The notes under the pieces are model-generated. The model was not told the origin of the DNA. It saw only the letters and a list, made by a program, of their open reading frames with translations, and did not search any database. 64,000 nt of DNA, from assembly GCA_002362065.1 (NCBI GenBank), contig DESX01000013.1, forward strand, positions 1,567 to 65,566, in the 5' to 3' direction. Source of the DNA: Solobacterium sp. UBA3303. Its GTDB lineage: Bacteria; Bacillota_I; Bacilli_A; Erysipelotrichales; Erysipelotrichaceae. Made by a program: the position numbers and the translations under genes. Of the stretch, positions 24,151-44,253 are shown in pieces (within the stretch, counting starts at the first letter, position 1; each line of letters opens with the position of its first letter).

Positions 24151-24186
24151 AAAAGGCCATATCGTGCGATATGACCTTTTTTCTTT
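24151..24186. terminator. bidirectional intrinsic terminator (cdd / convergent hydrolase)
   Basis: ggccatatcg/cgatatgacc stem with one mismatch, flanked by an A-run and a T-run. Confidence 0.65.
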
Positions 24187-25169: not shown

Positions 25170-25201
25170 CTTGTTTACCTCGATTTCAGTATAACAGATT
25201 A

Positions 25202-25230
25202 TTGACGGGTCCTTTTTGTCATGATAAATT
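25202..25230 (+). promoter_or_regulatory. candidate sigmaA promoter (TTGACG-17-TAAATT) for deaminase/phosphorylase operon
   Basis: Hexamers at 25202-25207 and 25225-25230 with a 17-nt spacer, in the divergent intergenic region. Confidence 0.4.
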
Positions 25231-25296
25231 GAAATTGTAAAGTTGCTTCTGTAGAAGTATAAGAGTGAATGAAGATTCATATCAACGAAGTTAGTT

Positions 25297-25326
25297 GGCC
25301 GGCTTTCAAAAAAGCTGGCTTATTTT
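25297..25326 (+). terminator. terminator-like hairpin inside the operon leader (possible attenuator)
   Basis: ggccggcttt (25297-25306) pairs with aaagctggct (25311-25320), 9-10 bp including G-U pairs, with a 4-nt loop, then ttatttt. It lies about 70 nt after the candidate promoter and 125 nt before the first gene. Confidence 0.4.
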
Positions 25327-25351
25327 CTCTATAGGAACTCAAGGAGCTTAT

Positions 25352-25459
25352 ATGAAAGACAATTTCAGGCTGAGCCTGTGGAAATGCCGCAGCGTTAAGA
25401 AGAATCTTCGGATGGAAGATCATCTTTTGTCATGCAAAGGGAGGAGTATTTATGAGTGA
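25352..25459 (+). CDS. possible 35-codon leader ORF overlapping the amidohydrolase start
   Basis: ATG at 25352 lies 6 nt after aaggag. Encodes MKDNFRLSLWKCRSVKKNLRMEDHLLSCKGRSIYE. Its TGA (25457-25459) overlaps the ATG at 25452. No homology evidence. Confidence 0.15.
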   Translation: MKDNFRLSLWKCRSVKKNLRMEDHLLSCKGRSIYE

Positions 25460-26789: not shown

Positions 26790-26791
26790 AT

Positions 26792-28428: not shown

Positions 28429-29227
28429 ATCAGTGAAGCTGACCAATGAGAACGGCAAGATGTGGCATATCGGCCTCGATGAACATGACTGCGGAAAACA
28501 CTTCATCCTGCCTGCCGATCCGGCCAGATGCGAGATGGTCGCAAAGCATTTTGAAAACGGAAAGCTCATGGCCGTTTCCAGAGGCAATCCGACCTACACC
28601 GGAACCTATCACGATATCCCGGTTTCGGTCATGTGCACCGGCATGGGTGCAATGGCGGTCTCGGTGGCCGTCGAGGAGCTCAAACATCTTGGCGTGAAAA
28701 CGATGATCCGTATGGGTACCTGCGGATCCTTGCAGCCATCACTTCCGGAAAACTGCTTTGTCATAGCGACCGGCGCGGTGCGCGGTGAAGGCGCATCAAA
28801 AGAATACATTCCACTTGAATATCCGGCCATTGCCGATGTCGATGTGGTCTGTGCCTTACGCAAGGCGTGCGAAGAATACGGCGTCAAGCCATACCTTGGC
28901 ATCATCCGCAGCCACGATTCCTTTTACATTGAATCGCCAGGTGCCCATGAAGGCTATATGGAAAGGATCCGGCCATGGACCGATGCCGGTGTTCTGGCAG
29001 TGGAAAATGAATCCGCAGCCCTGTTTACGGTCTCCTCATTGCTGGGCGGTATCCGCTCGGGTACGATCCTTTTGTGCGGCGGCTGGCTTGGTGAGAATCA
29101 TGGAACCATGTCGACATCCAACAAAGAGGATTATGCGCAAAAAGTCGATCTGATGACAAAGATCACTTTACGGGCGATCGAGATCATCGATGGGCTGGAT
29201 GATCTTGAAGATATCAGGGAAGACTAG
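28418..29227 (+). CDS. nucleoside phosphorylase, PNP/UDP family 1, paralog 3 (most canonical)
   Basis: 269 aa. LPADPAR, CTGMGAMA, RMGTCGS and VENES. SD aggggaag. 11-nt overlap with paralog 2. Confidence 0.88.
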   Translation: MKYRSVKLTNENGKMWHIGLDEHDCGKHFILPADPARCEMVAKHFENGKLMAVSRGNPTYTGTYHDIPVSVMCTGMGAMAVSVAVEELKHLGVKTMIRMGTCGSLQPSLPENCFVIATGAVRGEGASKEYIPLEYPAIADVDVVCALRKACEEYGVKPYLGIIRSHDSFYIESPGAHEGYMERIRPWTDAGVLAVENESAALFTVSSLLGGIRSGTILLCGGWLGENHGTMSTSNKEDYAQKVDLMTKITLRAIEIIDGLDDLEDIRED

Positions 29228-29869
29228 ATGAAACACCTGGATCTGAAAGCGTTCTGTATCCGCTTTGCGATCAGCTTTCTTTCTTCATTGATCTCAAGTT
29301 TCGGTATCGGCTGTTACTACAACTGCGGTTTCGGGACCGATCCGATCACGATCTTTGTCGATGGCTTACATGGCCACTACGGATTAAGCTATGGGACGAT
29401 CTCCACATTCTGCAACATCATACAGACCATACTGATCTTTATGTTCATACGAAAATACCTGGGTCCGGGCACTCTGCTGGGCGTCTTGACGGGCGGGCCG
29501 TTCATCGATCTGTTTGAAGGGATGATGCGAAACCTGTTTCCTGCCGATACGACAGCTTTAACTGTCAGGATCGTCATCCTGTTCGTCGGACTGGTAACGA
29601 CCGGTATTGGCTACGGCATGGGGATTGCGGCAGAGATGGGTGTTGGCTGTTTTCAGTTTCTGCCCTTGTTTCTGAGTGAAAAGACGCCGCTGGAATTAAA
29701 GTACACGCAGGTCATCACGGACGCTTTGTTTTTCCTTGCCGGTTATCTGCTGGGCGGGGTGATCGGCATCGGTTCGATCGTTTCAGTCCTGTTTACAGGC
29801 TATTTCCTGGACATCGGCTTGAAGCTGACCTATGGGATGACAAAGGATGTCGGACCGTGGTATAAATGA
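29228..29869 (+). CDS. small polytopic membrane protein (YczE/YyaS/YitT-like)
   Basis: 213 aa with 5-6 TM helices. The ATG directly follows the stop of paralog 3. Family assignment from memory of the N-terminal G..G.DP pattern. Confidence 0.5.
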   Translation: MKHLDLKAFCIRFAISFLSSLISSFGIGCYYNCGFGTDPITIFVDGLHGHYGLSYGTISTFCNIIQTILIFMFIRKYLGPGTLLGVLTGGPFIDLFEGMMRNLFPADTTALTVRIVILFVGLVTTGIGYGMGIAAEMGVGCFQFLPLFLSEKTPLELKYTQVITDALFFLAGYLLGGVIGIGSIVSVLFTGYFLDIGLKLTYGMTKDVGPWYK

Positions 29870-29887
29870 ACGTTCTGTGCATGATTC

Positions 29888-30046
29888 CGGATACCCGTCC
29901 TTGAATTTTGCCATACGGGATCCGCACTTAAAGAAAAACACAGTAAGAACTCCCCATGTTCTGACTGCTTTGTTTCCAGTATGAGCCGACGCATGTATAT
30001 CCGGCCGGTTTATATGGAAGAAACAGCGGAAAGCTTATGGGGAGTT
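29888..30046 (+). other. structured intergenic RNA candidate (two strong helices)
   Basis: Helix 1: cggatacccgt (29888-29898) pairs with acgggatccg (29915-29924), 10 bp with one bulge. Helix 2: aactccccat (29948-29957) pairs with atggggagtt (30037-30046), 10 bp enclosing about 80 nt. Confidence 0.3.
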
Positions 30047-30082
30047 TGTCTTGTATCTGTTTCTTTGACTGCAGCTCATTTC

Positions 30083-30116
30083 ACAGGCACCTTGGAAGAT
30101 GCCTGTTTTATTTTTG
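30083..30116 (+). terminator. intrinsic terminator about 215 nt after the operon's last stop codon
   Basis: acaggca/tgcctgt 7-bp stem with a 10-nt loop, then ttttattttt. Confidence 0.65.
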
Positions 30117-30278
30117 GCTTTTTAAGCGAACCGTAAGAAGAAAGCTACTTGTAACCATCAAAGAAGAGATGGTAATATTGAGATAGAGATGTATATATGA
30201 AAAGCAAAATGTATCCGATATGATAGAGGTCGTTTTTTATGTATGCAGATCCATTTTTTAGGAAAGAAGGAGAAAAAG

Positions 30279-31463
30279 ATGAAGAAATTTCTTACGTTAG
30301 CTCTCGCTGTCCTCCTCACTTTGTGCTTATTTGGCTGCGCAAAGAAGGAAGGCGGAAACGAGGGGAACACTGAACCTGCAGCTGCTGAGGAAGATTACGA
30401 TGTCGTATTCCTCGCTGACTTAGGTTCGATTTATGATGGCGGCTTCAACGAGCATTCATTCTACGGTATCAAGGATTACTGTGAAGAGAATGGTCTGAAG
30501 TACACTTACTTACAGCCAGCAGGCTCCGATGATGCATCCAGAACGACGATCTTCGAACAGGCAGTCAACCAGATGCATGCGGAAGTACTCGTAGCAGTCG
30601 GCTTCTTATGGGATGCTGCACTTTGCCAGGAGATTCCAAACTATCCGGATGTCAAGGTCATCTTCGTCGATGCCGATGACTTGTACAACATCGACTACGA
30701 CTACGATGGTGTCGATGATTCACTTCCTCATCAGGACAACCTGGCTATGATCACATTCGCTGAACAGGATTGCGGTTACATGGCTGGTTACGCTGTTGTC
30801 AAAGACGGTTACAGAAACCTCGCCTTCATGGGCGGTATGGCTGTTCCGGCTGTTGTCAGATTCGGCTATGGCTTCATCGAAGGTGCTGAAGATGCGGCTG
30901 AAGAACTCGGTCTTGCAAAAGGTTCCATCGATATGAAGTACTTCTACACAGGTACATTCGATGCTTCTCCGGATATCGTTACCAGAGCTTCTGAATGGTA
31001 CACCAACGGCACAGAGATCATCTTCTCCTGCGGTGGTACGATCGTCAACTCTGTCATCCAGGCTGCTAAGGATGGCGAAAACAGAAAGATCGTCGGTGTC
31101 GATACCGATGAATACTTCACAAGAGCTGCTGACGGCGCTGAAAACGAACCGATCTTCGTCACTTCTGCTATGAAGGACCTCGAGATCACGATCTACAGAG
31201 CTGTCAAGGCTGCTTACGCCGGTGGTTCTGAATGGAAAGCTTACACTGATGCCGGTCTGATCCGCTTAGGTGCTAAGGAAGACGGCGCGATCTTGGCTCC
31301 ATACAGAGCTGAAAACTGGAATACATTCACAGAGGATGATTACAACGCTGTCAAACAGCAGGTCATCGCTGTTCATGACACTCTGCCGACGGAAGTTGAC
31401 GGTGTCAACGGTGCTCCGGTTGATGGTTACGAATACGTCAACGTTACTTATTTCGAGCAGTAA
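30279..31463 (+). CDS. BMP-family ABC substrate-binding lipoprotein (nucleoside-binding type)
   Basis: Signal peptide with lipobox LFGC (MKKFLTLALAVLLTLCLFGC). SD aaggaga. PnrA/Med/BmpA-like body. The ORF-track start at 30243 was rejected in favour of the ATG at 30279. Confidence 0.88.
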   Translation: MKKFLTLALAVLLTLCLFGCAKKEGGNEGNTEPAAAEEDYDVVFLADLGSIYDGGFNEHSFYGIKDYCEENGLKYTYLQPAGSDDASRTTIFEQAVNQMHAEVLVAVGFLWDAALCQEIPNYPDVKVIFVDADDLYNIDYDYDGVDDSLPHQDNLAMITFAEQDCGYMAGYAVVKDGYRNLAFMGGMAVPAVVRFGYGFIEGAEDAAEELGLAKGSIDMKYFYTGTFDASPDIVTRASEWYTNGTEIIFSCGGTIVNSVIQAAKDGENRKIVGVDTDEYFTRAADGAENEPIFVTSAMKDLEITIYRAVKAAYAGGSEWKAYTDAGLIRLGAKEDGAILAPYRAENWNTFTEDDYNAVKQQVIAVHDTLPTEVDGVNGAPVDGYEYVNVTYFEQ

Positions 31464-31487
31464 TTTAATCGATCTGATGATATAAAA

Positions 31488-31511
31488 GAGAGGTGCTGCA
31501 AGGCACCTCTC
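31488..31511 (+). promoter_or_regulatory. intercistronic stem-loop after the binding-protein gene
   Basis: gagaggtgc/gcacctctc 9-bp stem with only a weak T tract. This is typical of partial termination or mRNA stabilisation that raises binding-protein expression over the membrane components. Confidence 0.45.
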
Positions 31512-31538
31512 TTCGCCTTTATTTGTGAAAGGATAGAT

Positions 31539-33077
31539 ATGGAAAACACGGAAAATATCATTGAATTCCGTCACATAACAAAGAGGTTCCCGGGCATCAT
31601 CGCCTGCAATGATATCTCACTGGATATCCGCAAAGGAGAGATCCACGCCTTGCTTGGTGAAAACGGCGCGGGAAAATCCACGCTGATGAGCGTCCTTTTT
31701 GGTATGTATACGCCTGAAGAAGGCACGATAGCGATCAGGGGGAAAGAAGTAAAGATCACCAATCCGCGCGTCGCTACGGAACTGGGTATCGGTATGGTGC
31801 ATCAGCATTTCAAACTGGTTCAGAATTACACAGTCTTACAGAATATCATTTTAGGCAGTGAGACCCTCAAAGGACCGTTCCTTGATATGGACAGCTGCCG
31901 CAAGAAGGTCGTAGAGCTCTCGGAAAAGTACGGGCTGGCGATCGATCCGGATGCCCTCATTGAAAACATCACGGTCGGTCAGCAGCAGCGCTGCGAGATC
32001 TTAAAGATGCTGTATCGAGAAGCTGAGATACTGATCTTTGATGAACCTACGGCTGTTTTGACTCCGCAAGAGATCGATGAACTTATGGAGATCATGAAGG
32101 GACTGGCCAAGGAAGGCCATACGATCCTGTTCATCTCCCATAAACTCGAAGAAATAAAAAGAGTATCTGACAGGGTCACAGTCTTAAGAAGAGGCAAACT
32201 GATCAAGACCCTGGATGCGGCTTCAACGACGACCACCCAGATGGGCGAACTGATGGTAGGAAGGGAAGTCTCCTTCCACGTCGACAAGAAGCCGGCAGAT
32301 CCGAAAGAAGAAGTACTCAAAGTCGAACATCTGACGATGATCAACGATGAGACCAAGAAGAAAGTCGTCAATGACGTCTCCTTCTCCGTAAGAAAAGGAG
32401 AGATCCTCGCGATCGCGGGAATCGACGGCAACGGACAAAGTGAGCTGATCTACGGTCTGACCGGCATCATGCCGATCAATGAAGGAAAGATCACCATCAA
32501 CGGCGTGGATTATACGAAGAAATCCATCCGTGAACGAAACCTGATCATGTCCCACATTCCGGAAGACAGACACAAGTATGGTCTGATCCTCGATTATCCT
32601 TTGTCCTACAACCTGGCTTTGAAGAATTACTTCAAACCGGATTTCGTATCCAAAACAGGCTTTTTGAAATTCAATAAATTTGACACTTACGCCGATGAAC
32701 TGATCGACCGTTTCGATATCCGTTCCGGTCAGGGCAAGGACACGATGGCCAGATCGATGTCCGGCGGCAACCAGCAGAAAGCGATCGTCGCCAGAGAGAT
32801 CGACCAGAATTCCGATGTCTTAGTGGCCGTACAGCCGACCAGAGGTCTGGATGTCGGTGCGATCGAATTCATTCACAAGCAGCTGGTCGAACAAAGAGAC
32901 AAGGGCAAGGCAGTCTTACTGATGTCGTTTGAACTCGATGAAGTCATGGACGTCGCGGACCGTGTGATCGTCATGTTTGAAGGCGAGATCATGGGCAACC
33001 TCGATCCGAAGAAAGTCTCTGTCGAAGAGATGGGCTTGTACATGGCCGGTGTCAAAAGAGAGGAGAAAGCACAATGA
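31539..33077 (+). CDS. ABC transporter ATP-binding protein, duplicated NBD (sugar/nucleoside CUT2 type)
   Basis: 512 aa. NBD1 has GENGAGKST, VGQQQRCE and ILIFDEP. NBD2 has GIDGNGQSE and MSGGNQQK. Confidence 0.93.
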   Translation: MENTENIIEFRHITKRFPGIIACNDISLDIRKGEIHALLGENGAGKSTLMSVLFGMYTPEEGTIAIRGKEVKITNPRVATELGIGMVHQHFKLVQNYTVLQNIILGSETLKGPFLDMDSCRKKVVELSEKYGLAIDPDALIENITVGQQQRCEILKMLYREAEILIFDEPTAVLTPQEIDELMEIMKGLAKEGHTILFISHKLEEIKRVSDRVTVLRRGKLIKTLDAASTTTTQMGELMVGREVSFHVDKKPADPKEEVLKVEHLTMINDETKKKVVNDVSFSVRKGEILAIAGIDGNGQSELIYGLTGIMPINEGKITINGVDYTKKSIRERNLIMSHIPEDRHKYGLILDYPLSYNLALKNYFKPDFVSKTGFLKFNKFDTYADELIDRFDIRSGQGKDTMARSMSGGNQQKAIVAREIDQNSDVLVAVQPTRGLDVGAIEFIHKQLVEQRDKGKAVLLMSFELDEVMDVADRVIVMFEGEIMGNLDPKKVSVEEMGLYMAGVKREEKAQ

Positions 33078-34198
33078 GCGTGAAGACGAAAAAGAAATTT
33101 GAGATCGCCAATTACACAGGCTTGTTGTCCTCTTTGATCGCCATCGTCGGCGGTCTGATCATTGCCTTCATAGTACTGATGGCGACCAATCCTTCCAAGG
33201 GCTTATCTGCCTTCGTCACGCTGATCACCGGCGGTTTCCAGCTTGGCGGCATGAAAAACCTTGGAACCCTGTTCTACTTTGCGACCCCGATCCTTTGTAC
33301 CGGCGTTGCGATGTGTCTGGCTTTCCAGGCCGGTATCTTCAATATCGGCGGACCTGGCCAGTATTCGGTCGGTGCTCTTGCAGCGATCTTAACATCTTTG
33401 TATTTTTCCAAGAACCTTCCGGCACCTTTGACCTGGATCGTACCGCTGATCGTTGCGACGTTCGCCGGTGCGGCCTGGGCATTCATTCCGGGCGTTTTAA
33501 AGGCATACTTCAACGTCAACGTGGTCATCGGTACCATCATGTTCAACTACATCGAAATGTACTACATGATGCACTGGATCAATGACTACTGCTACGATGC
33601 AATGAAAGGCCAGACCAGGGCCATCCCGGCGCAGTGCCGTCTGCCGCAGGCATTCATGCCTGCCATCACGCAGAACAAGACGGCAGATATCGGAATTTTG
33701 ATCGCGATCTTGTTTGCAGTACTTGCCTGGGTATTGATCGAGAAGACGAAACTCGGCTATGAACTGAAAGCCTGCGGCAAGAATGCCGAAGCTTCCCGCT
33801 ATGCCGGCATCCGTTCCAAGAGGAACATCATGATCTCGATCTTGCTGTCCGGTGCGCTTTGCGGCCTGGGCGGTGGTCTGACACACTTATCAGCTTCCGG
33901 AACCTACATCACGATGAAGGAACAGCTGGCGGCAGAAGGCTTCAATGGTATCGCAGTATGCTGTCTTGCCAACAACAATCCGCTCGGTGCGATCCTTGGT
34001 GCTTTGTTCCTTGCGTTCCTGACGGTCGGCGGCAACTACATGCAGATCTTCGGTTTCCAGAGAGAGATCGTTTCAGTTATCACATCCGTTATCATTTACT
34101 TCGCTGCATTCTCTTTGTTCCTGAAGCAGATCCTTGAGAGGCTTCTGATGAAACAGAAGACGCAGATCAATAAGGTCACGGGAGAGGAGCTCAAATAG
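33074..34198 (+). CDS. ABC transporter permease (BPD_transp_2 type)
   Basis: 374 aa, about 10 TM helices, ATGA overlap with the ATPase gene. Confidence 0.88.
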   Translation: MSVKTKKKFEIANYTGLLSSLIAIVGGLIIAFIVLMATNPSKGLSAFVTLITGGFQLGGMKNLGTLFYFATPILCTGVAMCLAFQAGIFNIGGPGQYSVGALAAILTSLYFSKNLPAPLTWIVPLIVATFAGAAWAFIPGVLKAYFNVNVVIGTIMFNYIEMYYMMHWINDYCYDAMKGQTRAIPAQCRLPQAFMPAITQNKTADIGILIAILFAVLAWVLIEKTKLGYELKACGKNAEASRYAGIRSKRNIMISILLSGALCGLGGGLTHLSASGTYITMKEQLAAEGFNGIAVCCLANNNPLGAILGALFLAFLTVGGNYMQIFGFQREIVSVITSVIIYFAAFSLFLKQILERLLMKQKTQINKVTGEELK

Positions 34199-34199
34199 T

Positions 34200-35156
34200 A
34201 TGGAAATGTTCTACTTTATCGCACGATATTTCATGTATTTCTTCATTCCGCTCCTGGTCGTCTCCATCAGCGGCATGTTCTCCGAGCGAAGCGGTGTCAT
34301 CCATATGGGTCTGGATTCCGTCATGGTCTGGTCCTGTATGTGGGGCGTCCTCTGTCTGCAATGGCTCGATGGCGTTGTAGCCGGTCAGCTGAGACTGATC
34401 ATCGCATTGCTGTTTGCCGGTGTCATGGGTGTCCTGCTGACGCTGTTATTGGCGTTTGCGGCCATCAACCTGAACGCCGATCAGACGATCGTCGGCATGG
34501 CGATGAATACCTTTGCGCCAGCCTTCTGTATCTTCTTTGCCAGAGTACTGCAGAATGGTTCGGAACATTTGTCGATCCGCAATGACTTCCTGATCGAAAG
34601 GATACCTGTCCTTGCCGATATACCAATCATCGGTCCGATGTTCTTTACAAGGACCTACATCACCAACTTCATCGGTATTGCGATCTTCATCATTTCGGCG
34701 ATCATCCTCAACAAGACCAGATTCGGTTTGAGAATGTGCGCGTGTGGTGAAAACCCGCAGGCAGCCGAATCCTTGGGTGTCAACGTACAGAAGTACAGAT
34801 ATGCCGCTTTGATCATCGCCGGCTTCATCGGCGGTATGGGCGGTCTGATGTACATCCTGCCGGTTGCGACCCACTACTCGCAGACCGTCGGCGGTTACGG
34901 TTATCTGGCAATGTCGGTTCTGATCTTTGGTCAGTGGCGTTCGATCCCGTTACTTGGTGCGGCAGCGTTCTTTGCTTTCTGCAAGACCATCGCCAACGCC
35001 TATTCCGGTATCCCGCTTTTAAACAACCTGGGTCTTCCGGCTGCGTTCTACAAGAGCCTTCCGTTCATCATCACTTTGATCGCTCTGGCGATCACGTCAA
35101 AGCACGACCACGCGCCAAAGGCGTCCGGTCAGCCTTACGACAAGTCGATGCGTTAA
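34200..35156 (+). CDS. ABC transporter permease (BPD_transp_2 type)
   Basis: 318 aa, polytopic, starts 1 nt after the upstream stop. Confidence 0.88.
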   Translation: MEMFYFIARYFMYFFIPLLVVSISGMFSERSGVIHMGLDSVMVWSCMWGVLCLQWLDGVVAGQLRLIIALLFAGVMGVLLTLLLAFAAINLNADQTIVGMAMNTFAPAFCIFFARVLQNGSEHLSIRNDFLIERIPVLADIPIIGPMFFTRTYITNFIGIAIFIISAIILNKTRFGLRMCACGENPQAAESLGVNVQKYRYAALIIAGFIGGMGGLMYILPVATHYSQTVGGYGYLAMSVLIFGQWRSIPLLGAAAFFAFCKTIANAYSGIPLLNNLGLPAAFYKSLPFIITLIALAITSKHDHAPKASGQPYDKSMR

Positions 35157-35172
35157 TATCTGTCCTTATAAG

Positions 35173-35203
35173 TTCAGCCGGAGCGAATCCGGCTGAATTT
35201 TTT
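35173..35203 (+). terminator. intrinsic terminator after nucleoside ABC operon
   Basis: ttcagccgga/tccggctgaa 10-bp stem, 5-nt loop, tttttt. Confidence 0.8.
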
Positions 35204-35225
35204 GTTTGTGATATCATCATATCAG

Positions 35226-36044
35226 GTGAAAAAGTTTATTCTTTGTCTCATCATACTGGCTCTTTCCTTCCTCTTCTTTTTTCAGAAGCGGGCTTTTGTA
35301 CATGGGCCAGCCATCTTTTCCTGGCATGACGATGTACTGGATGAGAAAAAGGAAGTCCTTTTTTCCTTAATGAAGGACTACGGACTAAAGGAAGTTTATC
35401 AGTATTTTTCTTCCGGTCTGGAAAATGAAGAGATCCTCTCCTTTATCGAAGAATGCAAAAACAATCAGATCAGAGTCTTTGCTCTGCTGGGAGAGGCAAA
35501 CTGGGCCTTGCAGGAGGACGGGGCTTCTTTGATCAGGGCCATGGAGAGATTTGATGAACTTGAAATCGATGGCTTTGTGATCGATATCGAACCGCATCTG
35601 TTAAAGGATTTCAAGGAAGATGATCAAAGGATCATGGACTGCTTTGCATCCTGTCTGGAAAAGGGGAGAACTTATGCGAAAGAAAAAAACAAGGAATTCA
35701 TCGTCTGTCTTCCATACCATTTTGACCGCTACGAACAGCTTGAAAAGATCATCGATAAAGGCCTTGATACACTGGCGATCATGAATTATTACCGCAGGGA
35801 TGAGATCGCACATCTCGAAACGGAAGCATCCTTGTGTAAGAAATATAACAAGACTCTGATCACGATCTATGAGTTTCAGAAGGCCGGTACTTATGGGCTG
35901 GAAGAGATCAATACGTACCATATGGAAGGATTTGAATCTTTAAGAAGAAGCTATGAATTGATGCGCTTGCATTATAATAAAAATAGTTTTAATTTCGCGA
36001 TCCACGAGTTTGAATCGTTCAAAGAAGCTGAAGCATATGAATGA
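35226..36044 (+). CDS. membrane-anchored hypothetical protein with GH18-like DGxxxDxE motif
   Basis: N-terminal TM (KKFILCLIILALSFLFFF). DGFVIDIE at 35568-35591. Alternating pattern compatible with a TIM barrel. Start uncertain: GTG 35226 chosen, since TTG 35202 lies inside the terminator T-run. Confidence 0.45.
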   Translation: MKKFILCLIILALSFLFFFQKRAFVHGPAIFSWHDDVLDEKKEVLFSLMKDYGLKEVYQYFSSGLENEEILSFIEECKNNQIRVFALLGEANWALQEDGASLIRAMERFDELEIDGFVIDIEPHLLKDFKEDDQRIMDCFASCLEKGRTYAKEKNKEFIVCLPYHFDRYEQLEKIIDKGLDTLAIMNYYRRDEIAHLETEASLCKKYNKTLITIYEFQKAGTYGLEEINTYHMEGFESLRRSYELMRLHYNKNSFNFAIHEFESFKEAEAYE

Positions 36045-36732
36045 GGTATCCAGGCAGGAAAGAAAGTTTCTGATCACATTGGATCAGTATTATCGTTTTA
36101 AGGCGGATCTTGACAAGATCATGATCCCTGACGAACACAATCAGACGGATGGCTATTCGATCCGTTCTCTTTATTATGATTCCATCGATGACCGGGACTT
36201 CGAAGAAAAGGAAGAGGGCATCGAGCTAAGACGAAAGATCCGTTTAAGGAACTATGGTCCGGATACACCGTTTGCTCTGCTGGAGATGAAGCAGAAGGAA
36301 GGCTCCAACCAGAAGAAGCGTTCCCTTCGCTTGAGCAAAGAGGATGCATCGCTTTTATGCAAGGGCATCTATTCTCCGCTTTTGACAAGTGATGAGAAGT
36401 TTGGTCTTGAATGTTATGCATTAATGAATATGCACTGCTACCGGCCAAAGGCGATCGTGGAATACAAGCGTCAGGCATATATTGCCAAGGAAAACAGGAT
36501 CAGGGTGACCTTTGACCATCACATCATCGGCACGGAATCCAATTACGATGTCTTCGATGCGGATCTGCAGCAGTTTCCTCTGCTGGACCCGTATCTTGTG
36601 GTCATGGAAGTCAAATACAATGGCTTTTTGTTAAGCTATATCAAAGATATGTTAAGACAATGTGATCGAAGTGAACTGTCGGTAGGCAAATATGCCTTAT
36701 CGCGGACTTTGAGCAAGCATTTCAATTTTTAA
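36037..36732 (+). CDS. VTC-domain (polyphosphate polymerase / triphosphate-tunnel, CYTH-like) protein
   Basis: About 231 aa with no TM. Alternating charged beta-strand motifs ERKFLI, IRSLYYDS, RKIRLRNY, LEMKQKEG, RVTFD and VMEVKY are typical of tunnel metalloenzymes. ATG 36037 overlaps the upstream stop by 8 nt. Confidence 0.7.
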   Translation: MNEVSRQERKFLITLDQYYRFKADLDKIMIPDEHNQTDGYSIRSLYYDSIDDRDFEEKEEGIELRRKIRLRNYGPDTPFALLEMKQKEGSNQKKRSLRLSKEDASLLCKGIYSPLLTSDEKFGLECYALMNMHCYRPKAIVEYKRQAYIAKENRIRVTFDHHIIGTESNYDVFDADLQQFPLLDPYLVVMEVKYNGFLLSYIKDMLRQCDRSELSVGKYALSRTLSKHFNF

Positions 36733-36743
36733 GGGGAAAGAGA

Positions 36744-37421
36744 ATGAGTACATTTATTTCGGAACTGATCAATGAAAGCGGCGTACTGACTTTGCAGGAG
36801 ATCGTGATGCATATCACTGCCTCAGCGATCTTAGGCTTTATCGTCTACCTGTCCTACTGGTATACCCATGCGGGAACCGCCTATTCCAAGAAATTCAACG
36901 TTTCCTTGCTGACACTGGCGATCCTGACCGGCACAGTCATGACCGTCATCGGCAACAACATCGTCCTTTCTTTAGGTATGGTCGGTGCACTTTCCATCGT
37001 ACGTTTCCGTACAGCGATCAAGGATTCAAGAGATACGACCTACATCTTCTGGGCGATCATCATCGGTATCTGCTGCGGTGTCGGTGACTACGTCGTTGCC
37101 GGTATCGGCTCAGCCGTGACGTTTATCATCCTGCTGCTGCTTGGAAGAGTACGCAATGAAAACAGGATCTTACTGATCATCCGTGCCTCCAAGGCAGACA
37201 GCTCCAAGATCGAAGAACTGGTCTTTTCCTATTTTGACAAGAGGGCACTACTTAGAGTCCGCAATACAACAAGAGATCATGTCGAGCTGATCTATGAAAT
37301 GCCTCGCAGCATCTGGCAGCTCAACTATAAGAAAGATACCGATATCGCTGACGCTTTATACGCTCTTGAAGGCGTGGAATACGTCAATACCGTCACACAG
37401 TCTGATGAGATAACGGGGTAA
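36744..37421 (+). CDS. DUF4956 integral membrane protein
   Basis: 225 aa, about 4 TM helices, with conserved LSIVRFRTAIKDSRDTTYIFWAIIIGICCGVG, then a soluble C-terminal domain of about 90 aa. Confidence 0.7.
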   Translation: MSTFISELINESGVLTLQEIVMHITASAILGFIVYLSYWYTHAGTAYSKKFNVSLLTLAILTGTVMTVIGNNIVLSLGMVGALSIVRFRTAIKDSRDTTYIFWAIIIGICCGVGDYVVAGIGSAVTFIILLLLGRVRNENRILLIIRASKADSSKIEELVFSYFDKRALLRVRNTTRDHVELIYEMPRSIWQLNYKKDTDIADALYALEGVEYVNTVTQSDEITG

Positions 37422-37424
37422 GCG

Positions 37425-38945
37425 ATGTCGAAAGGCTCCCTGATCACGTTTGTCCTGGTCGCGGCAGTCTTAGGCTTTTCCTTCTTTTTTGAGCGAAGCG
37501 AAAACCTGATCGTCAGATCAAGACACGAACAGCACAAAGAATACGCATCCGTAAGCGATCTCGGTGAAGATCCTTTTAAGGATGCCTCTTTGTCTAGCCA
37601 CCTGCCGATCCTTGTGATCGAAACAGGCGGGCAGAAGATCCCGGGGGCTCCAGTCGCCAATGCGCTTGGACATCTCGACCACTACGAACTTTCCGATGAC
37701 GGCTCAGACCAGATCAAAGTGAAAGTATCCGAGATCTCCAAAAAAGATTCCTGGCACCACGACAGCGATGAAGCAGACAAGAGCTACGATGCTTTGTTTC
37801 GCATACGCGGCAACTCTTCACGCTGGTTTTCCAAAAAATCCTACCGTATCCGTCTTGTCGATGAAACCCTTCAGGATATCGATGCGCCATTCCTTGACAT
37901 GAAGGAAGGAAATCAATGGGCACTCTACGGACCATTCCTTGACAAGACTTTGATCCGCAATTACATGTGGATGAATATTGCCTCCAGGATCATGCCTGGC
38001 TACACGCCGGAAGTTCGTTTCTGCGAAGTTATGATCGATGGCGAATACCAGGGCGTTTATGTTCTGATGGAGATGATCGAAACGGGTGATGGCCGTGTCG
38101 ATCTGAGTGAATATGAACCGGGCGATCTGGCCATGAGCTATATGGTCAGGATCGAACCGCGCGTCAATCCGGAAAAACAGGTCGATAATTTCTCTTTCTA
38201 TACCTATCGCATGGAGACAGGAAGGAATGTTGAGATCATCTATCCGCCTTTGAAATACCAGGATGAGAGAGTCAAACGCTATGTCGAGACCGACCTTTCG
38301 GAAGTGGAACGCAAGATCTTCGGTGCGGAAACAGCCGATGGAAGCCATGCCTGGAAAGACGAGATCGATCTTGACAGCTTCATCAATTACTACATCATTG
38401 AAGAATTTTTAGGTATCAACGATACCTTCTCCGCTTCGACTTATTTTTACCGCGATGTCAGAGGAAAACTCTGCATCGGTCCGGTCTGGGATTTCAACAA
38501 CGCGCTTGACAACTTCTTCCAGCCGGTGCCGGACGATGATTTCATCCTTGCACAGAGAGGCTGGTTTGCCCAGATGATGAAGGACAAGGATTTCGTCGAA
38601 CGCGCCATACGCCGCTACAAACAGCTAAGAGAAGGCATCCTATCCGATGAAAACCTTTTGACATACATCAAAGAGACCGAAGACTACCTTGGTCCGGCGA
38701 TCGAAAGAAACTTCGAAGTCTGGGGCTACTCCTTTGACCCGGATAAGGTCACAAGCAGAGAGAGACGCAGTTTTATGGAGGGAGGCCTGGATGGCATCCA
38801 TACGCTGAATCCGGAAGATTATGCCGAGGCAAACGAGATGATGATCGATTATCTGCTAGATCATTCCCACTGGCTCGATGAAAACATCGATTCCTTACGC
38901 CAGTATTGTCATCCGTCCAAGTTCTCCGGACAGATCATTGAATAG
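37425..38945 (+). CDS. CotH-family atypical kinase, N-terminally membrane-anchored
   Basis: 506 aa. TM LITFVLVAAVLGFSFFF. CotH-like blocks YRIRLVDE, LYGPFLDKTLIRNYMWMNIA, EVMIDGEYQGVYVLMEMIE and GPVWDFNNA. Confidence 0.75.
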   Translation: MSKGSLITFVLVAAVLGFSFFFERSENLIVRSRHEQHKEYASVSDLGEDPFKDASLSSHLPILVIETGGQKIPGAPVANALGHLDHYELSDDGSDQIKVKVSEISKKDSWHHDSDEADKSYDALFRIRGNSSRWFSKKSYRIRLVDETLQDIDAPFLDMKEGNQWALYGPFLDKTLIRNYMWMNIASRIMPGYTPEVRFCEVMIDGEYQGVYVLMEMIETGDGRVDLSEYEPGDLAMSYMVRIEPRVNPEKQVDNFSFYTYRMETGRNVEIIYPPLKYQDERVKRYVETDLSEVERKIFGAETADGSHAWKDEIDLDSFINYYIIEEFLGINDTFSASTYFYRDVRGKLCIGPVWDFNNALDNFFQPVPDDDFILAQRGWFAQMMKDKDFVERAIRRYKQLREGILSDENLLTYIKETEDYLGPAIERNFEVWGYSFDPDKVTSRERRSFMEGGLDGIHTLNPEDYAEANEMMIDYLLDHSHWLDENIDSLRQYCHPSKFSGQIIE

Positions 38946-38950
38946 AGATT

Positions 38951-41023
38951 ATGAGACGATTCGTTGCGATATTGACAGTTTTGTTCCTGGTCATGGTGGG
39001 TTTCTACTATTCTTACTTCCATGCCGGATTCTATTTCGTAAGTGATGATCAGCCGATCAGCGCATTTTCCTATGCGGCAGGCAAAGAGATCTGCGTCAAT
39101 GAAGAAAAGACAGATATCCGCTGTGTCGATCTTTCCGCATCCCTGCCGGGGAAAAATTACATGGATTTCTCCATGAAAAAAGAAGATTATCTGGAGTGCT
39201 TTTCTCTGATCGAAGATTTAGGAGCCAACGCGGTCCGCGTCTCTTCGATCATGGATCAGGACTTCTACGATTCCTTTTTTGAGTACAACCAGACAAAAGG
39301 AAAGCTGTATTTGATACAGGGCATCTCCTTCAGTGATGCGATCCGAAAGAGTGTAAGGGATGGCTATGATTCCGGTCTTTACGATGAGCTTATCTCAACG
39401 GGAAAGACCGCCATCGATATCATTCACGGCAAAAGGGACATCTTCAATTTTGCCAGAGGCGAGTACGGTTTCTTCCGAAAGGACCTCTCAGATCTCGTAC
39501 TTGGCTTTGAACTGCTGGGCGGTTTTGATCCGGATATGGTCTCCTATACCGACCATCGTTTAGTCAAGGCTAAAACAAGCAGGCGAAATTACGTTTATCC
39601 GTCCGAAGACGCCTCCGTGTTTGAAACTCTGCTTTGTGATGCCATGGATGAGCTGTTCAGCTATGAAGGAAACAAGTATGGAACGCAAAGGCTCATCGGC
39701 GTGCAGATCGACAAGGGCACAGACCTCGTCCATTACGAAGAAGTCTACGAACGCCAGTTAAGCAAGTATGCCTACATCGATCCGCAGCATATCCAGACCA
39801 CTGAAACCAACAAAGCGGGATTCTATGTCGATTACCATCTTTCGATGACGATGATGGACCATGACATCGATCCTTCCACGCAGAAAGCCTACAAGGTACT
39901 TGAAGATCTGAATGAAAGCTACAGCTCCTATTGCGGAATGCTTGGAAGATACCATACGATGCCTTTGATCGCGACTTTCTCGGCCACGTCGGGCTTTCTT
40001 GCGGACAACGTCAATGATGAAGCCAATGATGAGACCATGCAGGGGCAGGAACTCGTCAATACATATAAGACCGTGAAAAACTGCGGTTTTGCCGGTGCAG
40101 CTGTCTCATCCTTGCAGGATATCTATTCGGCAAGCAGTTTCAATACCGCTTTCGCAACAGACACGTCCAACGCCTATTTATGGCACGAACTCTTGTCCGA
40201 AGGACAGAACTCCGGCCTGGTCGCTTTTGAAGCGGAGAGCTCACATTTTGCGGATGGCGATGGAAGCGAATGGAAGGCCGAAGATCTTGTGATCGACGCC
40301 GAAAAGAAAGTCTATCTTTCTTATGATTATGAAGGTCTCCATATCTTTGTCAAAGACGCAAAGGAAAGCGATCTGCTCTACCTTCCTATTGATACAAATG
40401 ACAGCCTTGGTGCAAGGAAAGCCAATGTCTGTCCGTTTGGCTTTGACCGGGCTGCCGACTTCATTTTGAAGATCCATGGAACAGATGATACGATCCTCTA
40501 TGTTCAGGAAAGACAGGATGCGACAAGAGAAAACTTCCGCTACGAGATGGAAGGTGAGAACGCCTTCAGCGATGTTCCGGAGGCGGATACCAATCAGTTC
40601 GTGATCGTCAATTTTGCTTTGAACAATCCTTATCTCACCGACAAGATCGATCCGCAAAGCCGTGCCTTGCAAAGACTGGGCAAACAGGAAGCCGGAAGGC
40701 TCATCCGCGGTAATGGCAACCCATATGATGCGAATTATGATTCTTTGAGCAGTTTCTGCTTTGGTGAAGATGGGGTTGAAGTATTGATCCCATGGCTGAT
40801 GTTAAATGTCGGGGATCCTTGCAACATGCGGATCCATCAGGACTACTATCGTAATTACGGTGTCGATTTCAAGAAGATCGACAAGATCTATATCGGCCTG
40901 AGCAGTGATGCAAGAGTCATTGAACTCAAACCATTCAGTGTCAAAGGCTGGGGCGATGTGAAATATGTGATGCGGACGAAGAAGAGCTATGAAGTTTTAG
41001 GAAATGTCTGGAGGGCTGAATAG
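38951..41023 (+). CDS. large membrane-anchored hypothetical protein (possible glycoside-hydrolase-like N-terminal domain)
   Basis: 690 aa. N-terminal TM FVAILTVLFLVMVGFYY. LIEDLGANAVRVSSIMDQDFYD resembles TIM-barrel glycosidase openings. No confident family. Confidence 0.35.
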   Translation: MRRFVAILTVLFLVMVGFYYSYFHAGFYFVSDDQPISAFSYAAGKEICVNEEKTDIRCVDLSASLPGKNYMDFSMKKEDYLECFSLIEDLGANAVRVSSIMDQDFYDSFFEYNQTKGKLYLIQGISFSDAIRKSVRDGYDSGLYDELISTGKTAIDIIHGKRDIFNFARGEYGFFRKDLSDLVLGFELLGGFDPDMVSYTDHRLVKAKTSRRNYVYPSEDASVFETLLCDAMDELFSYEGNKYGTQRLIGVQIDKGTDLVHYEEVYERQLSKYAYIDPQHIQTTETNKAGFYVDYHLSMTMMDHDIDPSTQKAYKVLEDLNESYSSYCGMLGRYHTMPLIATFSATSGFLADNVNDEANDETMQGQELVNTYKTVKNCGFAGAAVSSLQDIYSASSFNTAFATDTSNAYLWHELLSEGQNSGLVAFEAESSHFADGDGSEWKAEDLVIDAEKKVYLSYDYEGLHIFVKDAKESDLLYLPIDTNDSLGARKANVCPFGFDRAADFILKIHGTDDTILYVQERQDATRENFRYEMEGENAFSDVPEADTNQFVIVNFALNNPYLTDKIDPQSRALQRLGKQEAGRLIRGNGNPYDANYDSLSSFCFGEDGVEVLIPWLMLNVGDPCNMRIHQDYYRNYGVDFKKIDKIYIGLSSDARVIELKPFSVKGWGDVKYVMRTKKSYEVLGNVWRAE

Positions 41024-42088
41024 ATGCGGATAATCATTGAGGGTGTGATCTATTTCTATCTGTTCATTTGTGCGGCACTTCTTCTTTTCAATGTGATCTA
41101 CATCTACCGGCAGACACAGAAAGAGAAAAACAAGGAAAAACGGATCGAAAGCTGGAAACAGAAACTGAAAAAAGACAAACAGAATACGATCCTGGATGAT
41201 AAGACCGTTGAAAAACTCAAGGATGCACAGCATCTGACTGGTCTTTACAATGCGATGGACGCAGTGCTCAAAGACAAGAAGAAACGTCTGACCTTCTACA
41301 AGAAGAACATGGCCGCTTTTCAGAAGCTGGCTCTGGAATATGAAAAACATAATGCCATGGAGAAGGCCTTCTTTGCCTATGTGCTGGCTTCCTTCGAATT
41401 CGACGGTACCGCAAACGAGGGCATCATGTCGCAGATCATGCTGCAGTGCTTTGAAGATTCAACGATCTACTGCAGAGAGAATCTTTTACACGCTTTGTAT
41501 GCGTTAGGAAAGAGCCAGGCGATCGAACATGGCTTTGCCTTGCTCAATGAGAATGACTGGTATCATTCGCCAAAGCTGATCGCGGATGGATTATTGAAAT
41601 ACAGGGGCGATCAGAAGGAACTGTGCGAACGCTTGTGGCGTCACCACGATGAATGGCGCGATTATCTTTTAGTCGGTGTCGTTCAATACGCCTCCATGTG
41701 CAAGGATGATTTCTTCAACGATGAACTGTTAAAAGATCTGCAGGACAAGGATACGCAGGATGAAGTCCGTTTTGCGATCATCCGTTATTTCATGCACCAC
41801 AAGGATGAAAAGATCCTGCCGCTTCTTTTAAGCTATGCCAGGGAAGAAGGGACCGATGACCGCTTTGCGATCCCGGCCTGTCTGAGCCTGCAGTCTTATC
41901 CTTGTGAAGAAAGCATCGATGCCCTGTGTCAGGCGATGCATTCAAGAAACTGGTATGTGCGTAAAAATGCTGTGATCTCTTTATATAAACTCAAAGCCGA
42001 CAAAAAAGCCTCCGAAAATCTGGGGGATGACCGTTATGCAAGAGAGATGTTTGAATATGTCGGCGCATCTTTGAAGGAGGCCGCATGA
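41024..42088 (+). CDS. membrane-anchored HEAT/ARM-like repeat protein
   Basis: 354 aa. N-terminal TM, lysine-rich linker, then helical repeats (LLHALYALGKSQAIEHGFALL, IDALCQAMHSRNWYVRKNAVISLYKL). The ATG directly follows the upstream TAG. Confidence 0.45.
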   Translation: MRIIIEGVIYFYLFICAALLLFNVIYIYRQTQKEKNKEKRIESWKQKLKKDKQNTILDDKTVEKLKDAQHLTGLYNAMDAVLKDKKKRLTFYKKNMAAFQKLALEYEKHNAMEKAFFAYVLASFEFDGTANEGIMSQIMLQCFEDSTIYCRENLLHALYALGKSQAIEHGFALLNENDWYHSPKLIADGLLKYRGDQKELCERLWRHHDEWRDYLLVGVVQYASMCKDDFFNDELLKDLQDKDTQDEVRFAIIRYFMHHKDEKILPLLLSYAREEGTDDRFAIPACLSLQSYPCEESIDALCQAMHSRNWYVRKNAVISLYKLKADKKASENLGDDRYAREMFEYVGASLKEAA

Positions 42089-43488
42089 GCACAATGGTCA
42101 ATGCGATCCTGAAATTCGGTCAGGTCTTCTTCCTGATCTATCTGATGATCTATGCGTCCTATCTTTTCCTTTCGGTCGCGGTCGGTGCCAACAAGCTCTA
42201 TAAGGAAGACCATCGCCGCAGCATCAAGAACGAACTCAAACACGATTACTATTTCCCGGTATCGATCTTAGTACCGGCCTATAACGAGGAAGTCACGATC
42301 ATCGAAAGTGTGGAATCTTTGCTGAGCCTTGATTACCGGCTTTATGAAGTCATCGTCGTCGATGACGGATCCAAGGATGATACCGCAAAAGTTCTGATCG
42401 ATCACTTCCATATGCACAAGGTCTCCAAGCCGATCCGCATTGCCGTACCTTGTAAGCCGATCCTGGAGGTCTATGAGGCTCCGGGCACCAAAAAGAAACT
42501 GACGCTGATCCGCAAAGTAAACGGCGGAAAGGGCGATGCCTTAAATGTAGGCATCAACGCTTCCCAGTATCCGTATTTTGTCTGTATCGATGCAGACTCG
42601 ATGCTGCAGACCGACTCTTTGACCCGTATCATTCAGCCGGCCATGGAAGATGATGATATCGTGGCTGTCGGCGGACTGATCCGTGTGGCACAGTGTGTCC
42701 GTTTTGACGGCGACAAGGTCTCATACCACCTCTCTGACAATTTCTTAGCTTCCATGCAGGTCATGGAATACGACCGTTCCTTCCTGGCTTCAAGGATCTT
42801 ACTGGATGGATTCAACGGCAACCTGATCATTTCCGGTGCCTTTGGCCTGTTCAAGAAGGATGTCGTCATTGCGGCGGGCGGTTATGCCAACAACACGCTG
42901 GGTGAAGATATGGAACTCGTCGCAAAGCTGCACGTCTTCTGCCGCAACAATAATATGCGCTATTCGATCCGCTATGAACCGAATGCCATCTGCTGGTCGC
43001 AGGCTCCTGCTTCTTTAGGCGATCTGATGAAACAGAGACGAAGATGGCACCTGGGTCTGTTCCAGTGCATGACCAGATACGGCTTCATGTTTGGCAAACT
43101 GCGCTATGGACTGGTCGGAACCGTCTCGTATTTCTACTATCTGATGTATGAGCTGTATTCGCCGTTCATCGAAGTCTTCGGTTTATTCGTGACTTTGCTG
43201 GCATTATTCAATGGCCAGCTCAATATACCGTTCCTGATCCGTTTCCATCTTCTGTTTGCGATCTACGGTTCGATCTTAACGATCACCGCATTCTTCCAGA
43301 GGATCTATACGCAAAACCTGAAGATCTCACGAAGCGACCTGTACCGGGCCATACTGATGTGTTTTATTGAAAACATCTTCTTCCGTTTCGTTCTCGATTA
43401 TGTGCGTTTCAATGCCTTTTTAGGCTATGGCAAAAACAAGAACAACTGGGGCTCGATCAAGCGTTTCAAACACTCGGAGGCAAAATAA
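42085..43488 (+). CDS. processive family-2 glycosyltransferase (polysaccharide synthase)
   Basis: 467 aa. VVVDDGSKDDT, DADS, GEDMEL and QRRRW (43033-43047). One or two N-terminal and about 4 C-terminal TM helices. No PilZ domain. ATGA overlap with the upstream gene. Confidence 0.85.
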   Translation: MSTMVNAILKFGQVFFLIYLMIYASYLFLSVAVGANKLYKEDHRRSIKNELKHDYYFPVSILVPAYNEEVTIIESVESLLSLDYRLYEVIVVDDGSKDDTAKVLIDHFHMHKVSKPIRIAVPCKPILEVYEAPGTKKKLTLIRKVNGGKGDALNVGINASQYPYFVCIDADSMLQTDSLTRIIQPAMEDDDIVAVGGLIRVAQCVRFDGDKVSYHLSDNFLASMQVMEYDRSFLASRILLDGFNGNLIISGAFGLFKKDVVIAAGGYANNTLGEDMELVAKLHVFCRNNNMRYSIRYEPNAICWSQAPASLGDLMKQRRRWHLGLFQCMTRYGFMFGKLRYGLVGTVSYFYYLMYELYSPFIEVFGLFVTLLALFNGQLNIPFLIRFHLLFAIYGSILTITAFFQRIYTQNLKISRSDLYRAILMCFIENIFFRFVLDYVRFNAFLGYGKNKNNWGSIKRFKHSEAK

Positions 43489-43494
43489 AGCAAC

Positions 43495-44253
43495 ATGAAA
43501 AAGAAAAAATTCTCATTCCTCAAACTGATCCTGGGCATACTCGTGGTCTTTTTGCTGTTGTGTGCAGGCGGTGTTTTTTACATCTATCAGAAAGTCAATG
43601 ACATCGGAAAATACAAGGATGAATTATCCTATGATTATCAATCGAAGATGGCTGAAAACGAAGGGAAGACCTTTGAAGACTTCATCTTCTACGATAAAGA
43701 GGCGATGGTCTTTGAATATAAAGTTCCTGCCTATTTTCTCTATGAGATCATCAATGAAGAGTCGATGGCTGAAATACTTGCCCTTCCTGAAGAACTTGAG
43801 ATCGCCGATGTCGGCGTGAAGCTGATGTTTGAAGAAAAGGAAGCTGACATCTATCTTTCCTTGAAATACCGCAATCTGATCAACACCTGTCTTGTTATTA
43901 AAACGGATATGCGTCTGAAAGAAGATCAGAGCGCTGTACAGCTTCTTTACAGAGATCTCTTTGTGATCGATGAGGAAGTCAGTGAATACGTCAGACAGAA
44001 CGTCCTGATGGAAAAGGGCACATTGTTATTTGAACACAAGTTCCCTGTCCATGTGCCATACTACAGAATGCCGGATTATCGCCCTGCTTTCATCCATGAT
44101 CTGGATTTTGACAAGGAATACATATACGCAAAATATGATATTGCCTCGGCAATGAAGGAATACCTTGCCCAGACGGAATATAACGAAGATTCCTTTGAAG
44201 AATGCATGGAGAAGGTGTACCTCGAAGTGCGTATGAACGGGATCGCCCATTGA
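43495..44253 (+). CDS. membrane-anchored hypothetical protein
   Basis: 252 aa. N-terminal KKKK plus TM (LKLILGILVVFLLLCAGGVFYIY) and an acidic extracytoplasmic domain. No recognisable family. Confidence 0.4.
   Translation: MKKKKFSFLKLILGILVVFLLLCAGGVFYIYQKVNDIGKYKDELSYDYQSKMAENEGKTFEDFIFYDKEAMVFEYKVPAYFLYEIINEESMAEILALPEELEIADVGVKLMFEEKEADIYLSLKYRNLINTCLVIKTDMRLKEDQSAVQLLYRDLFVIDEEVSEYVRQNVLMEKGTLLFEHKFPVHVPYYRMPDYRPAFIHDLDFDKEYIYAKYDIASAMKEYLAQTEYNEDSFEECMEKVYLEVRMNGIAH

Follow-up and report, generated by a model that had tools for sequence, protein, structure and literature searches.

A Vtc4-like tunnel protein and its DUF4956 and CotH neighbours in a polysaccharide-linked operon of Solobacterium sp. 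UBA3303

The VTC gene pair and its operon

The window analyzed here is a 64,000-nucleotide (nt) stretch of contig DESX01000013.1 of Solobacterium sp. UBA3303, and its subject is a pair of adjacent genes that encode a stand-alone triphosphate-tunnel protein of the VTC family (hereafter the VTC protein) and a membrane protein of the DUF4956 family. The VTC protein, which NCBI names "polyphosphate polymerase domain-containing protein", is probably an active enzyme of the Vtc4 type, as judged from its sequence and predicted structure. The pair is one more instance of a module that is already known, annotated and in print, and the third component of this module is a protein of the CotH family. The three genes lie in an operon defined as eight co-directional genes on the forward strand (35202-44253), in which neighboring genes overlap or are separated by no more than 11 nt (Table 1). 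The upstream edge of the operon is placed at ~35200 because an intrinsic-terminator-like hairpin precedes it.

The stop codon of g280 and the start of the VTC gene overlap by 8 nt. The VTC–DUF4956 spacer is exactly 11 nt long and contains a good ribosome-binding site (GGGGAAAGAG). We designated the ATG at 36037, not the TTG at 36010, as the start of the VTC gene, because more than 100 orthologs are 231 amino acids (aa) long and begin with MNEV.

Table 1. Features of the operon and its upstream boundary in the window.
Feature	Position	Strand	Description
Terminator-like hairpin	35170..35200	+	13-bp stem and T run; closes the upstream ABC-transporter genes
g280	35202..36044	+	280 aa; N-terminal hydrophobic anchor; no family match
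VTC	36037..36732	+	231 aa; Vtc4-like triphosphate-tunnel enzyme, as assigned by Pfam VTC, model, Foldseek and residue map
DUF4956	36744..37421	+	225 aa; MgtC-like membrane protein; Pfam PF16316
CotH	37425..38945	+	506 aa; kinase fold, single N-terminal membrane anchor; Pfam PF08757, E 5e-52
p690	38951..41023	+	690 aa; N-terminal anchor; no family match
HEAT-repeat protein	41024..42088	+	N-terminal anchor, then strongly basic stretch
GT2	42085..43488	+	multi-pass family-2 glycosyltransferase; Pfam GT2 families and membrane segments
p252	43495..44253	+	252 aa; N-terminal anchor; no family match; last gene of the tight run

Fold and active site of the VTC protein

The VTC protein matches the Pfam VTC profile (PF09359) with an E-value of 9.3e-42 and 143.6 bits (cut-off 23) over profile positions 2-230 of 235, and contains the strand motifs QERKF, IRSLYYD, RRKIRLRN, LEMKQKEG, IRVTFDH and VMEVKYN. 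PF09359 was the only family found by the Pfam search of its 231 residues, with no SPX domain. It has no hydrophobic segment and is predicted to be soluble and cytoplasmic. Its homologs form 4096 clusters at 50% identity (E <1e-3), and the structure predicted by AlphaFold from 114 diverse members has a predicted local distance difference test score (pLDDT) of 95.4 and a predicted template modeling score (pTM) of 0.91. When this model was compared with the PDB by Foldseek, the best matches were Vtc4 (3g3r and 3g3q; E 6e-14 to 1e-13, template modeling score 0.70-0.74). Ranks 1-12 are all occupied by VTC tunnel domains, in which the Vtc4 entries span E 6e-14 to 1e-12 and Vtc2/3 come after Vtc4. 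E. coli YgiF appears at rank 14, and YgiF and the CYTH enzymes have E-values of 2e-8 and weaker.

At the sequence level, a phmmer search of PDB sequences with the single protein gave no match and a profile of 20 close homologs missed Vtc4, whereas the 114-sequence profile reached Vtc4 at E 1e-10. A profile restricted to the C-terminal part did not find Vtc4; therefore, fungal Vtc4 fragments were retrieved and profile-aligned, and hhalign aligned them with the family profile at a probability of 98.3% over 224 columns. The identity with yeast Vtc4 (3G3Q/3G3R, 7YTJ, 8I6V) is ~17%. The two proteins share the beta-tunnel fold, the Pfam family and the mapped catalytic and substrate-binding residues. 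Unlike Vtc4, the window protein stands alone without an SPX domain; in the eukaryotic VTC complex, the tunnel is fused to a C-terminal three-helix membrane domain and accompanied by Vtc1-type (DUF202) subunits, and the window pair has neither.

In the alignment, K10, R69, R71, E83, K85, K94, Y143, R145, R156, D160, E191 and K218 of the window protein correspond to K200, R264, R266, E279, K281, K294, Y359, R361, R373, D377, E426 and K458 of Vtc4, respectively. R6 and K193 correspond to R196 and K428, and these two positions are basic in both proteins. G217 takes the place of S457, where the bacterial family consensus is Ser; across the 114 aligned sequences, every other mapped residue is either invariant or conserved to at least 90%. 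The window protein further differs from Vtc4 in having Ser for K455 and a Glu (E8), invariant in the bacterial family, for T198. Thr is invariant at the latter position in fungal Vtc4, and E8 is a real clade-specific difference.

In hydrolytic triphosphate tunnel metalloenzymes (TTMs), an acidic patch (E2, E4, E90 and E171 in AtTTM3) forms a second metal site, whereas Vtc4 has basic residues instead, which guide the growing chain (Martinez et al. 2015, PMC4641920). The same study reports that K458 is catalytic in Vtc4 and that the equivalent Lys is dispensable in AtTTM3. At the acidic-patch positions, R6 and K193 of the window protein are basic as in Vtc4, and E8 is a Glu like E4 of AtTTM3; the equivalent of AtTTM3 E90 is unmapped. 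Because the fold is closest to Vtc4 and every mappable catalytic residue is kept, an activity of the Vtc4 type appears probable. The active site looks competent and polymerase-like, and we give true polyphosphate (polyP) synthesis by this protein roughly even odds. An earlier first-pass annotation of this DNA had described a tunnel-domain protein of about 231 residues with alternating charged strands and likened it to Vtc4. This description holds: all the motifs it quoted are present, Vtc4 ranks ahead of YgiF and the CYTH enzymes, and the tunnel residues, whose absence it had named as a possible counter-argument, are all found at the mapped positions.

Membrane partner, CotH and gene neighborhood

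The DUF4956 protein matches PF16316 with an E-value of 9.6e-13 and 48.6 bits (cut-off 30.6), and thousands of its homologs bear the Pfam label DUF4956. Its predicted structure has about five membrane helices (residues 17-42, 48-69, 73-91, 95-113 and 116-133), followed by a soluble domain (141-219) with the beta-alpha-beta-beta-alpha-beta order of an ACT-like domain. None of the other operon products is conserved as strongly as the DUF4956 protein (50-88% identity across 80 loci), and its near-invariant stretch LSLGMVGALSIVRFRTAIKDSRDTTYIFW contains an invariant basic loop, RFRTAIKDSRD. The charge distribution suggests that the N-terminus is outside and that the soluble domain and the basic loop are cytoplasmic. 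The extreme C-terminus carries an acidic tail (QSDEITG, 37398-37421), which follows the pattern Q-S/N-D-E-I-S/T-G in ~75 of 79 orthologs; in the model, this tail is disordered. A role of this tail as a docking or plug peptide in the basic tunnel of the VTC protein is only an idea.

Outside its own family, the protein shows a sub-threshold similarity to MgtC, in which residues 59-137 reach 24.4 bits with PF02308 (cut-off 31.4). The best Foldseek matches of the model, which are weak, are the two MgtC C-terminal domains of solved structure (2lqj, E 2e-3; 7qa5, E 1e-2), followed by ACT and NikR-type domains. Members of the MgtC/SapB/YhiD family likewise have an ACT-like domain on the cytoplasmic side after a membrane domain of several helices. 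Unlike them, the DUF4956 protein has invariant motifs of its own and the acidic C-terminal tail. Because Foldseek matches MgtC domains and no VTC membrane chains, profile and model comparison place the protein with MgtC and show no kinship with the Vtc1 channel. As cited in PMC12345266, MgtC proteins, that of Salmonella among them, work through binding to other proteins of the membrane and are not known to transport anything.

CotH follows directly. An N-terminal hydrophobic segment is present in 74 of 75 CotH orthologs, and its flank is more positive on the N-side in 61 of them and on the C-side in 1, from which the kinase-fold domain is predicted to be extracellular. Many polar residues of CotH are at least 95% conserved.

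One genome per species was scanned, which yielded close relatives of the VTC protein in 480 species; the neighborhood counts below refer to the best 80 loci, which come from Clostridia, Erysipelotrichia and Streptococcus (including S. agalactiae ATCC 13813). In 75 of the 80, the gene right after VTC is DUF4956, and CotH comes next in 71. The loci further contain p690 (66/80), GT2 (64/80) and HEAT (60/80), and g280 precedes VTC in 35/80. Several of the missing neighbors are due to contig ends. The adjacency of VTC and DUF4956 is thus far beyond chance. It also holds in all seven distant representatives (33-39% identity), where CotH follows wherever the downstream DNA suffices and GT2 is usually nearby.

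A complete seven-gene operon is carried by the 67-kb plasmid NZ_CP059541.1 of Planococcus maritimus (Bacillales; locus L091, 4470-12824). The NCBI pipeline PGAP annotates its genes, in order, as hypothetical, polyphosphate polymerase domain-containing, DUF4956, CotH kinase family, hypothetical, HEAT repeat and glycosyltransferase. The complete copy on a plasmid indicates that the operon is horizontally mobile. Plasmid pNP95 of Pseudobutyrivibrio xylanivorans (L092, 6221-9360) has the order CotH, VTC, DUF4956, and there the trio lies inside a mixed glycan cluster with GT2, GT4, GT61, acyltransferase and pyruvyl-transferase genes, which is a third polysaccharide context. The trio therefore accompanies at least three unrelated polysaccharide systems, namely pel, a PgaC-like GT2 and the mixed GT2/GT4/GT61 cluster.

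Some loci deviate from the common arrangement. In two Agathobaculum species (L021, 3000-10200; L012), VTC lies beside HEAT and GT2, with EAL, GGDEF-EAL and membrane GGDEF genes around it in place of DUF4956 and CotH, a variant that links the tunnel enzyme to cyclic di-GMP (c-di-GMP) signaling. In three other loci (L086, 8001-9494; L087; L088, 2233-3894; representatives P0250 and P0235), VTC carries a fused, unrelated multi-pass membrane domain at its N-terminus; DUF4956 comes next, CotH follows where the contig permits, and DHHW and GT2 genes lie upstream. These two fusion variants fit a membrane site of action for VTC. No VTC–DUF4956 fusion was found among the longer VTC representatives, the N-terminal extensions of which are coiled-coil or unrelated multi-pass regions.

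The gene set has been published before. The C. perfringens locus NELoc-2 (CP4_0460-0468) carries the gene set of the window, and the proteins of the two loci agree in length (Lepp et al. 2010, PMC2879425). From CP4_0463 to CP4_0468, the gene order is also that of the window, and the lengths are 230-232 (VTC), 222-226 (membrane protein), 497 (CotH), 685 (hypothetical), 377 (HEAT) and 466 (glycosyltransferase), compared with 231, 225, 506, 690, 354 and 467 in the window; p690 corresponds to CP4_0466. Unlike in the window, the VTC/membrane-protein pair of NELoc-2 is duplicated with a resolvase between the copies, and the membrane protein is mislabeled as 'tubulin/FtsZ GTPase' (PMC2879425). Gram-positive pel operons have contiguous accessory genes for CotH, a poly-phosphate polymerase, DUF4956 and DUF4832, and this pel-linked trio occurs in streptococci, clostridia and bifidobacteria, the last of which add a diguanylate cyclase/phosphodiesterase (DGC/PDE) gene (Whitfield et al. 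2020, PMC7112168). In a 2025 mBio study, the four S. intermedius genes SIR_1591-1594 were deleted individually: loss of SIR_1592, which has MgtC-like helices and an ACT domain, raised Pel and lowered aggregation, and loss of SIR_1594 (CotH) lowered Pel (PMC12345266).

The pel-linked loci resemble the window in having CotH, a polyP-polymerase-domain protein, an MgtC-like membrane protein with an ACT domain and a further exported gene. They differ in that the trio comes after pelDEADAFG, with the GT4 protein PelF and PelG, whereas the window has no pel genes and has a PgaC-like GT2 as its synthase. The 2025 study states that CotH/VTC/DUF4956 synteny was not found outside pel loci (PMC12345266). 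Our counts contradict this statement, as the trio occurs with a PgaC-like GT2, a HEAT protein and the 690-aa protein in more than 60 loci.

These comparisons also bear on the remaining proposals of the first-pass annotation. It had described the product of the gene 11 nt downstream of VTC as a DUF4956 protein with four membrane helices and a soluble tail; the family, the spacer and the soluble domain are as stated, and five helices fit better. Its suggestion of a VTC-type membrane partner is not supported, as no relation to Vtc1/DUF202 was detected and the only outside similarity is to MgtC. The proposed two-component unit proves to be two-thirds of a conserved trio with a predicted exported CotH, embedded in polysaccharide operons, and the adjacency was already in print in 2010 (PMC2879425) and 2020 (PMC7112168) and had been followed by the 2025 deletions (PMC12345266).

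Searches against PDB sequences gave no match for g280, p690, p252 and CotH, and Pfam gave none for g280, p690 and p252, even at E-values up to 10. These three proteins look extracytoplasmic. The slot of g280 is that of a glycoside hydrolase (SIR_1591) in the pel-linked versions. The motif EIDGFVIDIEPH at residues ~118-130 of g280 is reminiscent of the catalytic strands in TIM-barrel proteins of the glycoside-hydrolase-like kind. The HEAT repeats are predicted to be cytoplasmic because a strongly basic stretch comes after the N-terminal anchor. The GT2 protein resembles PgaC/IcaA, chitin synthases and cellulose synthases (TIGR03937 PgaC_IcaA, 150 bits, below the cut-off of 422). Its catalytic domain looks cytoplasmic, and the protein probably serves the operon as polysaccharide synthase-translocase.

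Around the operon, the window is ordinary chromosome, with genes for nucleoside salvage, the arginine deiminase pathway, pyruvate kinase, glutamine synthetase and methionyl-tRNA synthetase. The nucleoside-salvage block (24186-35156) lies directly upstream, ends at the strong terminator-like hairpin listed in Table 1, and comprises a nucleoside hydrolase, an amidohydrolase, three tandem PNP_UDP_1 phosphorylase genes and a BMP-lipoprotein ABC transporter. The arginine deiminase cluster (8340-12597) contains arginine deiminase, ornithine carbamoyltransferase, a carbamate-kinase-like protein and an ArgZ-like gene on the opposite strand. A mobile-island reading of the window was rejected, because the G+C content is even and the flanks are housekeeping genes. 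Among the window open reading frames of at least 180 aa, no PPK1 or PPK2 domain was found, and none of the pelF (GT4), pelG, pelD, pelE and pelA families occurs, for which reason a pel-locus reading was likewise rejected.

A proposed module for cell-surface polysaccharides and its alternatives

We tentatively favor, with somewhat less than even confidence, a three-protein accessory module for cell-surface polysaccharides that consists of a cytoplasmic Vtc4-like enzyme, the MgtC-like DUF4956 protein and an outward-facing CotH. The module travels with polysaccharide synthesis genes, and the window version is a NELoc-2-type operon around a PgaC-like processive GT2. In such a module, the tunnel enzyme would be catalytically active and form phosphoanhydride bonds from a nucleoside triphosphate; by analogy with Vtc4, the likeliest product would be short or long polyP. 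The enzyme would work on the inner membrane face while bound to DUF4956, and its product, together with CotH, would act in phosphate chemistry on the secreted polysaccharide or in the control of this polymer. The altered Pel and aggregation of the S. intermedius DUF4956- and CotH-homolog deletions are counted for a role of the module (PMC12345266). On sequence grounds, polyP synthesis by the module is plausible, whereas passage of the product across the membrane through DUF4956 is speculative and is the less likely part. Export of polyP has its appeal, since it would supply a donor for an extracellular kinase and a counter-polyanion for cationic polysaccharides. The MgtC-like character of DUF4956, the unequal mutant phenotypes and the Agathobaculum loci count against it.

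Several points weigh against the favored module. The confidence of the DUF4956 model is moderate (pLDDT 74), and no relation to Vtc1/DUF202 was detected by Pfam or by Foldseek, which returned no VTC membrane chains. The invariant E8, at the T198 position of Vtc4, corresponds to the second Glu in the ExExK motif that hydrolytic TTMs carry, and the bacterial VTC proteins may therefore differ from Vtc4 in their chemistry. A literature search found no published biochemical or enzyme-activity test of a bacterial VTC protein. Two Agathobaculum species have VTC without DUF4956 or CotH, and loss of SIR_1593, the VTC homolog with the polyP-polymerase domain, gave no aggregation or Pel phenotype in S. 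intermedius (PMC12345266). The unequal phenotypes of the S. intermedius mutants, together with the Agathobaculum loci, speak against an obligate VTC–DUF4956 pair.

The same observations bear on the alternatives. The trio might be a regulatory module, in which an MgtC-like ACT sensor and the tunnel enzyme tune the polysaccharide synthase post-translationally, replacing or complementing c-di-GMP control, and in which a polyP or nucleotide product acts inside the cell. We consider this unlikely, although it would account for the opposite effects of the DUF4956- and CotH-homolog deletions on Pel and for the ACT-like domain of DUF4956. The GGDEF/EAL genes around the Agathobaculum VTC, beside HEAT and GT2, and the DGC/PDE gene that joins the trio in bifidobacteria (PMC7112168) also point this way, as does the binding of other membrane proteins by Salmonella MgtC (as cited in PMC12345266). 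However, regulation leaves the invariant, predicted outward-facing kinase partner unexplained, and the association with three unrelated synthesis systems is more easily explained by a modifying function than by a regulator of one particular synthase. That the tunnel protein is a hydrolase or cyclase of the TTM/CYTH type (tripolyphosphatase, NTPase or nucleotide cyclase) and not a polymerase has, in our view, a low probability. E8 speaks for it, and AtTTM3 is only a tripolyphosphatase despite a tunnel center very similar to that of Vtc4 (PMC4641920); YgiF and CYTH cyclases are also among the Foldseek matches, with weaker scores. Opposed to this are the basic R6 and K193 at the two mapped positions of the acidic patch (with the E90 equivalent unmapped), the retention of K218 at the position of the catalytic K458, which is dispensable in AtTTM3, and the closest fold and profile matches, which are VTC proteins by several orders of magnitude.

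It also seems improbable that VTC and DUF4956 alone form a synthase-translocase, which would thread cytoplasmic polyP through a DUF4956 channel and so provide PPK-independent extracellular polyP. The intact Vtc4-type tunnel, the near-universal VTC-to-DUF4956 adjacency with short spacers, the conservation of DUF4956 above all other operon proteins with its invariant basic loop, predicted to be cytoplasmic, and the predicted location of CotH outside the cell, where a phosphoryl donor would be needed, are consistent with such a machine. Nevertheless, DUF4956 resembles MgtC, which has no known transport role, and not Vtc1/DUF202, the S. intermedius mutants of the VTC and DUF4956 homologs differ in phenotype, and VTC occurs without DUF4956 in Agathobaculum. 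In addition, CotH and glycan genes accompany the pair almost without exception; therefore, the pair is not self-contained. A self-sufficient trio for phosphate chemistry outside a Gram-positive cell, in which VTC would make polyP from ATP at the cytoplasmic face, DUF4956 would let it pass, and the polymer would act outside as phosphoryl donor for CotH or as cross-linker of a cationic exopolysaccharide, is a similarly doubtful extension.

Compared with the published relatives, what is new here, at the level of sequence, is the complete mapped Vtc4 active site with its clade-specific Glu and the predicted outward orientation of CotH. The MgtC-like assignment of DUF4956 by predicted fold is also new, and so is the observation that the trio lies mostly with a PgaC-like GT2 and not with pel. 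The window instance itself adds nothing beyond the other members of the module. The complete active site and the clade-specific Glu provide the basis for a direct and cheap assay and for a list of mutants, and the three or more unrelated polysaccharide contexts widen the question left by the 2025 S. intermedius study beyond pel.

Polyphosphate synthesis in bacteria is attributed to PPK1 and PPK2. If the trio were self-sufficient, it would represent the first PPK-independent, VTC-type polyP pathway in bacteria and the first biochemical role for an MgtC-like membrane domain. The Vtc4-type enzyme has a wide distribution in Firmicutes, where its carriers include pathogens (C. perfringens NELoc-2, S. 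agalactiae and the S. milleri group), and, if the family is active, it would constitute a third bacterial route to polyP, one that is tied to the polysaccharides of the biofilm matrix.

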